Source: Lytechinus pictus
Taxonomy: Eukaryota
Direction: 5' to 3'
Assembly: GCF_037042905.1 (NCBI RefSeq)
Contig: NC_087250.1
Location: forward strand, 14,262,001-14,326,000
Length of the DNA: 64,000 bases
The translations under genes and the position numbers were made by a program. Positions 12,275 to 18,090 of the stretch are shown here, piece after piece; the stretch's first letter is position 1, and each line of letters begins with the position of its first letter. A model generated the notes under the pieces. The model was not told the DNA's origin, did not search any database, and was given only the letters and a program-made list of their open reading frames with translations.

Positions 12275-12831
12275 GTCGACCCGCGCCCGCAGTTCATTAC
12301 CATGCAGCGATCCCCTGGCGTCTCTTTCTTTTTTTATTTTGTCTTTGACTCCATTTTTACATCCTCTGGATCATTTCCACTCATAGCTCATTCCACAGAA
12401 CAATCTTGAATCAAACGTACTATTCTTCTCGGCCTTCCGAGTTGTTTTCTAAATTTAATTACGCTAGGGGTCACCGTCACACATACAAACGCAATTCGCA
12501 AGTGAGTTGAAGACAGCAAGAAAGGTATGCGGTATGGTACGGTAGCTCGACAGCTAGCTGCGCCGGAGCGGGCGGCCGGTCGGCACAAAGCAATTCCGCA
12601 ACCAACTGTGTTGTTTTTGCAAGAGCCGCGTCACACGCGGATAAATATGTCATAATAACACGTCTGCTACGTTATCGACTGGTGAAAAGATCTCGATCAA
12701 ATTTTATATTATTCGCCTTGAAATTATTCCTTTAGGGTCTACCCAGGTAACAAGCCAACGTTGGCTCCACGTTGGAAACTTGAAAGTCGTTGGACGTTGG
12801 AAAAACTTGATGGATTAACGTTGAATCGACG

Positions 12832-14336
12832 CACAGTGGGCCAGAATGAACCCAAAGTGCGCCAAAACCCATTATTCACACATTTGTATGATTAAATTTG
12901 GTAGATAGGGGTAATTTCACCCGTAGAATTCAATAAAAGTATTTTCAAATATTGATGACGTCGTTAAAATACTGTTTTCTGATTGGCTGTTAACATTTGA
13001 GCAGAAATTACATGTTTCTAATTCTACAATAAGTTTCAAATTTTCAGAAACTAGTTTTAGATAAATTTCAGCAATAATTAAGCATATCAGCAAACAGCAA
13101 ACACACAAACAGTCAACCAAACCAGAAAAGTCTGTGCTCGGGGTACAAATAATTCAATTGGTGACCTGAGTATCGCTTAAAGAGGGCGTCCTACCATGAA
13201 TCCGGAATTGTAAAATTCAAAGTAAAATTGTTTAAAAAAAATGAAAAGGAGTATTTTTATTCCCTGTGTACAATGATTAACCATACCTACATGAATTAAA
13301 ATGGATTGATACCAGAAGTGGACAGTAAAATCTATAAAATAATGATTCCAGTGATTAGAGGCCGGGTCCTCTGCAGGTTAATCAGTACAAGGCCCTACAA
13401 GGCCTACCAAGAACGGCGTATACAAAGTTATTCCGAATCAGAGTCTCTATCTACTATCTCAACAACTATTGTGTCTTTGGTGAGAAGATCTTTTTAGCAT
13501 ACTTTGAACATCAGGGGGAAGAGGCTGTGATTGTTGTACTCTTAAAAACTTGCTCCTAATCACAATGTCACCTGTTACCATTAGCATGTGGAATACATAT
13601 AAAGTCAATGAGAGTCATAAACCAAACAATCATTGAAATAATAATATACACTTCCTTCTTGATCGATACCAACAATTATAGCAAATTTAGAATGAGCCAA
13701 GAGATAAACGAATTCATACGTGTATGTGAAGTTACAAACCCTTTTGGGGGATAAATACTAATAATGATAATGCAATTTATACATGTAACAGAGGCCACGT
13801 ATATCCCATCTGTGTCCTATACACATTTTCATATTTTGTCAGAAAACTGCGAGAGACCTATCACATCCCTAGTCATGTGTGTTATAGCGATATACAGTAG
13901 CCTCTACTTGGTTTATGAACAACAAACCAAATATATAATCTTACCCGGGAATCTTACCTTAAGAATTAATCTTCTCAGTATGACAGCATATCAAATATGG
14001 AACACGGGATGGTATATTTGAGTTTTGTCAGACGTGTATCAATCAGATATGATTATTTACGTCTGGGACCGACCTTTAACGTCACCATCCGAAAGACGTG
14101 ACCAGGGCTCAAACCTCGAACCTCTACATCAATTTGTAACTTCCCCGCATAGCTTGGATTACAGGCGCACGCCACAACGCCCAGGATGGAACAGTTTGGC
14201 ATCAAAATTAAGTTGCGTTACATGTATTATTATATAGTTAGTAGAATTGGAAATGAAAGCTTGCCTTTACGTATGTTTAACGAAAATATTTTAAAGGTAG
14301 ACACCAGTCACAAGAGCCACACACTTGAGCCAGCTA

Positions 14337-14369
<33 letters not shown>

Positions 14370-15013
14370 CCAGAACACGACGGGGAGTTTGATGTTTAAT
14401 GTCACCCGCAACGTTCGGCATGCACGCGCATATAATGGGACAGTAACTTGGACCGATTTTTGTGATAAATACAGCAAACATGTGGTTGAAAAATTGGTTA
14501 TATCTCCAGAAAATGCACGTATATGCAGCTAAATTTGGTATCAGTGTAAAGCATGAACTATAACAAAGACCGCCATGGTATTTACAGCGCAGCAATCGGC
14601 AGCAATTTGTAAAAGAAATGCTCATGAAAAAAAAATGCTAAAACACCCCCATTGTCAAATGGTTTCGTCCAAAATTGCCTCTGAAGGGATTTTCATTTTA
14701 TCTTGAAAATCTTTGATCACTTAAAACAATTATTCATCAAAGAGCACCGTGAATTAGAAATAAATTATGCAAACTGTTTTGTCAAAACAGTGAAATATCT
14801 AAAACGTGTCATTTACACATGCGGTAGCCGTAAATAGTCATTTTCCGGTAACATTGAATAAAAATGGGCAACTAATATTCAATTTAATGGAGAAATATTG
14901 TACGGAGGCATTCTACAGGTTCTTATCTTTGCTTAGAACAGGAAAAAAACAAAATTTGTTTCATGACCAAAAACCAGTTTTGGCGCACTTTTGCTCTCTC
15001 CTGGCCCACTGTG
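12832..15013. mobile_element. Transib-type non-autonomous element with RSS-like TIRs
   Basis: Both ends start CACAGTGGGCCAG and share AAAGTGCGCCAAAAC; perfect 5-bp GC-rich TSD CGACG (12827-12831 and 15014-15018); no transposase ORF. Confidence 0.85.
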
Positions 15014-16500
15014 CGACGTTGGAAACTAGTTTGATGGAAAGATGTTGGACAATCAACAATGACACGACGTTGGCAACGTTGGAAACTTGTTAGTTGGAGA
15101 GTTGTTGGACAGTCGACAATGTCACAACGTTGGAAACACGTTTGATTGGATAGTTGTTGAACAGCCAGCAAAGGCACAACGTTGGCATCGTTGGAAACTA
15201 GTTCGCTGGAAAGTTGTTGAACAACCGACAATGGCACAACGTTGACAAAGTTGGAAACTAGTTTGTTGGAGATTTGTTGGACGGTCGACAATGTCACAAC
15301 GTTGGAAACACGTTTGATTGGATAGTTGTTGAACAGCCAGCAAAGGCACAACGTTGGCAACGTTGGAAACTAGTTCGCTGGAAAGTTGTTGAACAACCGA
15401 CAATGGCACAACGTTGACAAAGTTGGAAACTAGTTTGTTGGAGATTAGTTGGACGGTCGACAATGGCACAACGTTGGAGACTAGTAAGTTGGAGAGTTGT
15501 TGGACAGTCGACAATGTCACAACGTTGGAGACACGTTTGATTGGATAGTTGTTGACAGCCAGCAAAGGCACAACGTTGGCAACGTTGGAAACTAGTTCGT
15601 TGGAAAGTTGTTGAACAATCAACAATGACACGACGTAGGCAATGTTGGAAACTTGTTAGTTGGAGAGTTGTTGGACAGTCGACAATGGCACAACGATGGA
15701 AACTAGTAGGTTGGAGATTAGTTGAATAGTCGACGATGACACAAGGTTGGCAACGTTGGAAACTAGTTCGATGGAAAGTCATTGAACAACCAACTATGGC
15801 ACAACGTTGTCAAAGCTAGAAACTAGTTCGATGGAGATTTGTAAGATAGTCGACGATGGCACAACATTGGAAACTGGTAGATTGGAGATTAGTTAGATAG
15901 TATACAATGACACAACGTTGATAAAGCTGGAAACTAGTTAGATGGGAGGTTGTTGAACAACTGACACTGGCACAACGTTGGAAACTGGTAGATTGGAGAT
16001 CAGTACGATAGTCGACGATGACACAATGTTGGCAACGTTGGAAAGTTGTTGACAATGGCACAACATTGGAAACTAGTATGTTGGAGATTTGTTGGACACG
16101 GCCAACAACGTCACAACGTTGGAAACGCGTGTTTGATTGGATAGGTGTTGAACAGCCAACAAAGGCACAGCGTTGACTGCGTCGGAAACTAGTTCGATGG
16201 AGAGTTGCTGAACAACCGACAAAGGAACAACGTTGGAAACTATTTTCTTGGAGATTTGTTGGACAGTCGACAATGGCACAACGTTGACAAAGTTGGAAAC
16301 TAGTTTGATGGAGAGTTGTTGAACAACGGACAATGGCACAACGTGGACAGCAGCGTAATTGGAATAGTTTATTGGAGAGTTGCTGACAGTTAACATTGAC
16401 ACAATGTTGGAAACTATAGTTTGTTGGATATTTGTTTGACAGTCAACATAATATCTCGGCATAATATACACAGTGTTGAGAACGTTAGAAACTGGTTCAT
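15014..16500 (+). repeat. Tandem array of ~43-55-bp units (CACAACGTTGGAAACTAGTT...GTCGACAATG)
   Basis: Roughly 30 units with higher-order blocks; source of the repetitive minus-strand ORFs in 14923-16471. Confidence 0.9.
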
Positions 16501-17457: not shown

Positions 17458-18090
17458 TAACCCAGGCCAGGCCCAGGGAGCTCCGGCCCGCACAGCGGGC
17501 CGGAGCCCAGGAGCTTACCGTGTAATTCACCATACCCACGGTAGTAGCGTGAAGTATGGTCTAAATAATTATCCGAATAAATAGTTAAAACAGAAATTAA
17601 GCACTTACCACGATTATATGGATGAAGGTCTAACGAGTGGCAGCTTCCTGACATGGAGGCACAGACTGGAACCTCAAAAAACGAAAAGTTCTGTCGCGGT
17701 AGCTCTCCTCTTTCAGAATTCAAAACAAAATGGCCGATTGAGACCGAGGCTAATAGCACCAGCGCATATAGACTTTGTCAAATTCGCGCATGCGCCCTAC
17801 ACCCTCGGTACCGGTCTCGAACGGCCATTTTGCTATGAATTCTGAAAGAAGGAGAGCTACCGCGACAGAACTTTTAGTTTTTTGAGGTTCCAGTCTGTGC
17901 CTCGATGTCAGGAAGCTGCCACTCGTTAGACCTTCATCCATATAATCGTGGTAAGTGCTTAATTTCTGTTTTAACTATTTATTCGGATAATTATTTAGAC
18001 CATACTTCACGCTACTACCGTGGGTATGGTGAATTACATGGTAAGTCCCTGGGCTCCGGCCTGCTGAGAGGGCCGGAGCTCCCTGGGTTA
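17458..18090. mobile_element. MULE/Foldback-like palindromic MITE
   Basis: TAACCCAGG...CCTGGGTTA, ~285-bp near-perfect arms, 9-bp TSD GTGTTGGTG (17449-17457 and 18091-18099). Confidence 0.85.

Follow-up and report, generated by a model that had tools for sequence, protein, structure and literature searches.

The element that occupies positions 12832 to 15013 of a 64,000-nucleotide stretch of the sea urchin Lytechinus pictus genome (hereafter the window, C6:14262001-14326000 of an 812-Mb assembly in 368 contigs) is very probably one copy of a ~2.0-kb non-autonomous Transib family ('Transib-N' family), for which a canonical Transib transposase would act in trans. Direct observation covers the ends, the 5-bp duplications at CGNCG targets, the number and similarity of the copies, the non-coding state and the near-identity to the published TransibN1_SP scaffold; the enzyme and its chemistry belong to the proposed mechanism. 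The original prediction, made from the letters of this stretch alone, had described a Transib-type element whose two ends both resemble V(D)J recombination signal sequences with a 23-nt spacer (23-RSS). When the sequence was read, the ends, the 23-nt spacing and the CGACG duplication proved exact. The element and its parts, numbered by window position, are as follows (TIR, terminal inverted repeat).

12827..12831, no strand: left copy of the target-site duplication, CGACG, the same 5 nt as at 15014-15018
12832..15013, plus strand: whole non-autonomous Transib-type element, 2182 bp (family norm ~2.0 kb)
12832..12868, plus strand: left TIR, 37 nt (positions 1-13 and 23-37 agree between left and right), with an outer block CACAGTGGGCCAG at 12832-12844, a variable part AATGAACCC at 12845-12853, an inner block AAAGTGCGCCAAAA at 12854-12867 and then C
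14012..14184, no strand: nested 173-bp interspersed repeat, absent from other family copies
14977..15013, minus strand: right TIR, 37 nt read inward, with the same blocks as the left TIR (outer 15013-15001; variable 15000-14992, GAGAGAGCA; inner 14991-14978; C at 14977)
15014..15018, no strand: right copy of the target-site duplication, CGACG, read directly from the sequence

The element is bounded by 37-nt inverted ends that follow a single formula, CACAGTGGGCCAG + 9 variable nt + AAAGTGCGCCAAAAC. Written out as recombination signals, the left end is CACAGTG + GGCCAGAATGAACCCAAAGTGCG + CCAAAACCC from 12832, and the right end is CACAGTG + GGCCAGGAGAGAGCAAAAGTGCG + CCAAAACTG read inward from 15013; outside the identical blocks they differ at six of the nine positions 14-22 and again at 38-39. 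An inverted-repeat search returned the same structure as two arms of 42 nt, of which 5 nt are flank, separated by 2108 nt and complementary at 83%. No exact copy of the 13-mer or of the 15-mer exists in the 64-kb window outside the two element ends, and the numbers of matches expected with up to two mismatches are 0.50 and 0.15, respectively. A third match with two mismatches, at 17491, lacks the inner block and was dismissed as chance. No open reading frame (ORF) longer than 105 aa lies inside the element, and a Pfam scan of seven element ORFs gave nothing above the cut-off (the best, at E = 0.047, fell short of the gathering score), which makes the element non-autonomous.

Mobility cannot be read from one copy in one window, and on this ground alone a chance inverted repeat or an assembly artefact could be proposed. 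The rest of the genome makes this explanation extremely improbable. The left 100 bp gave 139 first-look candidates and the right 100 bp gave 146; at each end all 40 of the matches that were scored are 98-100% identical and are spread over many contigs, and 12 of the 40 left-end matches, the window's own copy among them, are at 100%. The family comprises about 140-200 copies of ~2.0 kb. The end sequence is present in 30/30 loci fetched with the left end, with different flanks at each, and the 45 nt from the left end are identical in 26 of them and one base off in each of the other four. The heptamer CACAGTG stands at 29 of these 30 left ends, the remaining one reading CTCAGTG. The consensus heptamer of Transib elements is CACAATG, CACAGTG being found in some families. 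Twenty copies were fetched by pairing the coordinates of left- and right-end matches, 19 of them with both ends, and the first 39 nt of the right end are identical in all 19 fetched copies that hold it. When the window element is compared with 20 other copies from the genome, the high-scoring segment pairs show 89-99% identity, and the distance between paired scaffold ends is mostly 1.95-2.3 kb.

Each copy has its own flanks and its own duplication. The original prediction had made the 5-bp duplication of other copies a test of its reading, and among 20 end pairs (the 19 fetched copies and the window copy) 18 carry a perfect one; of the two others, L050 fails and L051 matches at 4/5 positions. 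At the target, 38 of 47 distinct end flanks read CGNCG (CGGCG 13, CGCCG 11, CGACG 7, CGTCG 7), a motif found at 55 of 63,996 positions in the window, whose GC content is 36%. Many insertions lie within GCG-type simple repeats. The family is real and mobile.

The two conserved blocks reach well beyond this family. A genome-wide search with a scaffold pattern made of the two blocks separated by nine free positions, with up to two mismatches, returned 446+448 matches, and the reversed control 0+0. In a hand tally of the spacers in the first 100 of these 894 matches, 20 were those of the family's left end and 22 those of its right end, one-base variants of the latter included; 56 were a third spacer, AATGAGTTG, or differed from it by one or two bases, and 2 were others. 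The third spacer belongs to a sister non-autonomous family of ~1.2 kb, three copies of which were fetched (L063, L064 at C1:2375950-2379151, and L065; one copy is 1.7 kb). With 56 of the first 100 scaffold matches, this sister family outnumbers that of the window element. Its left ends seemed partnerless at the outset, which suggested an asymmetry of the 12/23 kind. This idea was dropped: the right end, CACAGTGGGCCGG GGCGAAACA AAAGTGCGCCAAAAG, differs from the scaffold only by a G at position 12 and keeps the same spacing. A second pattern, which showed the same, gave 373+381 matches, again with 0+0 in the control. Scaffold ends in the genome therefore number between 894 and ~1,650, since the two pattern sets may overlap. 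Such totals (894 and 754 matches against 0 in the reversed controls) again argue against chance or artefact.

We aligned five end types, namely the left and right ends of the window's family, those of the sister family and the published end of TransibN1_SP; the ends within the window's family are too uniform and too selected for a logo. Invariant in all five are positions 1-11, 13 and 23-36; variation is found at 12, at 14-22 and from 37 on. Conservation among the types is thus uneven, and its inner peak overlaps the nonamer slot, the place where the original prediction had expected one. The bipartite and symmetric character of the ends also stands, in that there are two blocks and the geometry is equal at both ends; the clean 7/23/9 layout of a recombination signal does not, because the conserved blocks cover positions 1-13 and 23-36, a 13/9/14 division. 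Of the nine 'nonamer' positions, six fall within the inner block AAAGTGCGCCAAAA, which also takes in 8 nt of the 'spacer'. The nine middle positions themselves hold a contrast between the two sides that is similar in both families: the left ends have AATGA in common at positions 14-18, and the right ends agree in having G at 14 and 16, A at 19 and CA at 21-22. A parent element as yet unseen probably has left and right ends that can be told apart and share the same geometry.

Assignment to Transib is based on the 5-bp duplication, the CAC heptamer, the bipartite ~38-bp ends, the GC-rich target and the match of the ends to a published family, all of which were found here. According to the parts of Kapitonov & Jurka 2005 (PMC1131882) that describe the superfamily, 5-bp duplications distinguish Transib from all other superfamilies, the targets are GC-rich by preference, and each 38-bp end is built of a CAC heptamer, a 23-bp spacer that varies and an A-rich nonamer. 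Supplementary Fig. S4g of the same article gives the consensus end of TransibN1_SP, a family of the purple sea urchin, as CACAGTGGGCCAG GGAGGAACC AAAGTGCGCCAAAA, with CGGCG or CGACG duplications at the copies shown. Compared by the ends alone, either end of the window element agrees with this consensus at 31/36 positions, and all mismatches fall in the nine middle positions, which read GGAGGAACC there and AATGAACCC and GAGAGAGCA here; the spacing is equal, the duplications are 5 bp long and of the CGNCG type, and both elements are non-coding. The figure also brings out differences: its copies are ~0.56-0.91 kb long by their coordinates, against ~2.0 kb in the window's family, and its consensus has one middle at both ends, whereas the window and sister families differ between left and right. 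The claim of a non-autonomous Transib-type element is supported by the duplications of 5 bp at CGNCG, by the absence of coding capacity and by the TransibN1_SP-like ends.

The likeness to a V(D)J signal is real but loose. Set against the vertebrate 23-RSS (CACAGTG, 23 nt, ACAAAAACC), both ends have the heptamer at 7/7, an A-run in the nonamer slot and A at each of the nonamer positions 5 and 6. The nonamer slot matches at 7/9 on the left; on the right it matches at only 5/9, and this match by itself is not above chance. The element also departs from a vertebrate signal in that its conserved block lies at 23-36 and not at 31-39, and in that it is of the 23-type at both ends, has no adjoining gene segments and carries insertion duplications. 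The perfect CACAGTG with an A-run 23 nt away at both ends might be taken to mean that the ends are functional host recombination signals of a V(D)J-like system and not those of a transposon, but we consider this highly improbable: (i), the spacing is equal at both ends, hence there is no 12/23 pair. (ii), the flanking 5-bp duplication marks an insertion and not the border of a gene segment. (iii), near-identical copies are scattered by the hundred over unrelated CGNCG sites, in many cases inside simple repeats of the GCG type and, (iv), no coding segment adjoins the ends, which are flanked by satellite-like DNA.

Much of this picture was already published in 2005 (PMC1131882): the Transib kind, the symmetry of the ends, the GC-rich 5-bp duplications and, in sea urchin, this very scaffold (Fig. 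S4g). The original prediction had held that a symmetric 23/23 element would be informative about end recognition; in the part of that article that deals with the ends, most Transib families are 23-RSS-like on both sides, and therefore a symmetric 23/23 arrangement is the known norm. What is added here is the strict CGNCG target and the delimitation of two conserved scaffold blocks, 1-13 and 23-36. To this come two abundant families, of ~2.0 and ~1.2 kb, which share a common scaffold and show a similar contrast between left and right in the nine variable positions.

How the family would move can be sketched from the better-studied systems. A DDE transposase of the Transib type, made elsewhere, would bind the two 37-nt ends and cut at the border between flank and CAC by a nick-hairpin reaction, a chemistry that we infer from the literature on Hztransib and RAG. 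The excised element would then be inserted at a staggered 5-bp cut, nearly always within CGNCG, and repair would give the 5-bp duplication. By the same literature, the outer block (1-13) may direct cleavage and the inner block (23-36) may offer a second binding site. In Helicoverpa zea, Hztransib was reported to cleave by nick-hairpin formation and to produce invariable 5-bp duplications (Carmona et al. 2016, PMC4840297). From what that article reports, Hztransib shares with the window element CAC-heptamer ends and GC-leaning 5-bp duplications, but its target is only slightly GC-enriched, against the strict CGNCG of the window's family. Its ends are said to have 'little or none' of the nonamer similarity, in contrast with the conserved A-rich inner block of the sea urchin scaffold; the enzyme is described as sensitive to nonamer placement though it is without most of the nonamer-binding domain. 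The partner enzyme itself would presumably be a canonical Transib transposase like that of Transib1_SP, an autonomous element of 4132 bp with a CGGCG duplication and a 676-aa transposase in two exons (PMC1131882). As described there, Transib1_SP belongs to the same host group, carries a 5-bp CGGCG duplication and represents the expected type of partner; it differs in its length and in encoding a transposase, the window element being non-coding, and no equivalent was found in the assembly.

Several points weigh against a Transib-N family served by such an enzyme. Duplications and targets were counted on copies chosen as best matches to the terminal 100 bp, and hence biased to young ones. No autonomous copy and no canonical Transib transposase gene were seen in the assembly, by a search that was insensitive. 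The 22 RAG1-family candidates of the genome all proved to be RAG1-like genes or fragments. Finally, seven over-long copies of the window and sister families, 3.5-9.3 kb in length, hold nested unrelated elements or no sizeable ORF. The absence of the partner enzyme is not established, however, because no canonical Transib protein was used as a query and the Pfam family RAG1 (PF12940) is a poor probe. The original prediction had placed the transposase elsewhere in this genome and suggested a search for long copies that encode Transib, RAG1L or RAG2L. Neither was found: the RAG1-family candidates show none of these ends in the stretches inspected, and the over-long copies are without such a transposase.

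Searched with PF12940, the genome gave 22 candidates, 17 of them at an E of 0.001 or better. At 12 fetched loci, the ORFs that matched by blastp are 41-89% identical to an intact RAG1-like (RAG1L) ORF on C4; the remaining candidates, read by eye, are RAG1L-like C-terminal fragments. Intact RAG1L ORFs were found on C182 (612 aa stop-to-stop, L031 with L069/L070) and on C4 (621 aa, L033, C4:15673407-15678089). C233 (L032) holds an identical copy of the C182 ORF, perhaps a haplotig. Transposon ends were not seen near any of these intact ORFs. The C4 ORF matches amphioxus RAG1L (6b40) at 1e-146 and vertebrate RAG1 at ~1e-62, and HzTransib (6pqn) at 4e-6 only, over 95 residues. None of the scaffold-type ends lies within 1.5 kb of the 12 fetched loci (at the C4 locus, +/-1.5 kb). 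These RAG1-family hits were rejected as autonomous partners, all being RAG1L genes or fragments. A phmmer search with the C4 RAG1L ORF gave 560 matches; among the 150 listed, the divergent P0085, P0116 and P0097 were considered as steps towards a canonical Transib and set aside, since amphioxus RAG1L is their best match and they have no match to HzTransib.

The over-long copies were rejected one after the other as autonomous elements. L043, of 9.3 kb, has no ORF >142 aa, L074 none >168 aa and L044 none of 100 aa or more. Judged by eye, L066 holds a reverse-transcriptase and GIY-YIG-like ORF, L067 endonuclease/reverse-transcriptase ORFs like those of long interspersed elements (LINEs), and L072 Tc1/mariner-like ORFs. 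In L073 the additional length is a nested 5.7-kb element with its own 15-nt inverted ends and a TTTT duplication.

The C182 locus bears on a further explanation, in which the genome's own RAG1L/RAG2L pair, and not a canonical Transib transposase, mobilises the family or else cuts and restrains it. After the RAG1L ORF of C182 comes a convergent ORF of 291 aa, the end of which reads like a PHD finger; by eye, this second ORF appears RAG2L-like. A second intact RAG1L ORF lies on C4 and the duplicate on C233, and the canonical transposase was not detected, which is weak evidence as no suitable query was used. Sea urchin RAG1L together with vertebrate RAG2 was reported to be able to recombine RSS substrates (PMC4840297), and RAG-like (RAGL) proteins have been proposed to protect genomes from Transib-like elements (Yakovenko et al. 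2021, PMC8355894). We nevertheless consider a role of the RAG1L/RAG2L pair improbable: no scaffold end was found in C182:9000-25656, the region that holds the RAG1L/RAG2L pair, or in the 1.5 kb on either side of the 12 RAG1-family loci, echinoid RAGL genes are described in the literature as being without TIRs, and an autonomous canonical Transib with a CGGCG duplication has been published for sea urchin (PMC1131882). The ends of RAGL/ProtoRAG elements, as the same part of PMC8355894 describes them, do share with the scaffold a heptamer, 5-bp duplications and an inner A-rich region, TR2, that is conserved in part, but they are short (~15-17 bp) or 27/31-asymmetric and weakly RSS-like. The sea urchin RAGL genes are presented there as lacking such ends, and the C182 region likewise showed no link to the scaffold ends.

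The genomic targets of sea urchin RAG1/2L are called unknown in the portion of Yakovenko et al. 2021 (PMC8355894) that discusses them. It is tempting to ask whether the ~900-1,650 scaffold ends, each with a perfect RSS heptamer and a conserved A-rich block at the 23-nt position, could be natural DNA targets of the intact sea urchin RAG1-like and RAG2-like proteins, for mobilisation or for a cleavage that restrains Transib; we hold this to be quite doubtful. If true, it would supply the 'genomic targets' of echinoid RAGL and offer a living case of RAG-like proteins acting on Transib ends. The assembly holds intact RAG1-like and, as judged by eye, RAG2-like genes and no autonomous partner was seen in it, a combination also added by the present analysis, and this raises the question of whether echinoid RAG-like proteins recognise Transib ends. 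Mobilisation in trans by a canonical Transib transposase remains our preferred explanation for the Transib-N family.

Other observations were made along the way at RAG1-like loci. A tandem array on C9 is built of 4.09-kb units, 99.9% identical, each with a degenerate RAG1-like C-terminal fragment; the locus was fetched as L071 (C9:18166500-18174500), and matches span C9:18143020 to 18173215. At L034 and L039 (C2:5167066-5173120), short repeats ~140-160 bp apart adjoin RAG1-like fragments. They start with CACTGTGA(C/T)CTTGA(C/T)CTTTG and continue, slightly further, with CTCAAAAT, that is, a heptamer-like word and then an A-rich one.

The element nested in L073 is a DNA transposon in its own right. 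It occupies ~361-6052 of C3:68246859-68253861, where a sister-family copy is its host, and has inverted ends GGCTCAATCCCACTA and an intact 874-aa ORF with no Pfam or PDB sequence match. This ORF has 54 matches in the genome, many of them with open frames at 36-54% identity; in a protein atlas it leads to unnamed eukaryotic clusters, with a weak lead to DUF7869.

The window copy itself sits at the margin of a satellite that spans 15016 to ~16363 and has periods of 60, 111 and 171 bp. The periods are nested, the unit contains ...ACGTTGGAAACTAGTT..., and degenerate units also occur upstream of 12827. Rebuilding the empty site from the adjoining satellite was uninformative: homology begins only 3 nt into the duplication, and upstream of it the flank has degenerated. 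Among public sequencing runs, 19 of the 24 listed contain part of the stretch, and none reaches half its words.

The window copy also carries the 173-bp repeat, and element positions 1182-1352 are missing in 20/20 other copies. This repeat gave at least 1637 first-look candidates genome-wide, and 43 other matches are 89-99% identical, most of the scored copies being at 97-99%. ARAGORN found no tRNA in it, and a tRNA origin was dropped. It is a very young and very abundant short element, either a short interspersed element (SINE) or a miniature inverted-repeat transposable element (MITE), which may have entered the window copy after its insertion or may already have been present in the source copy.

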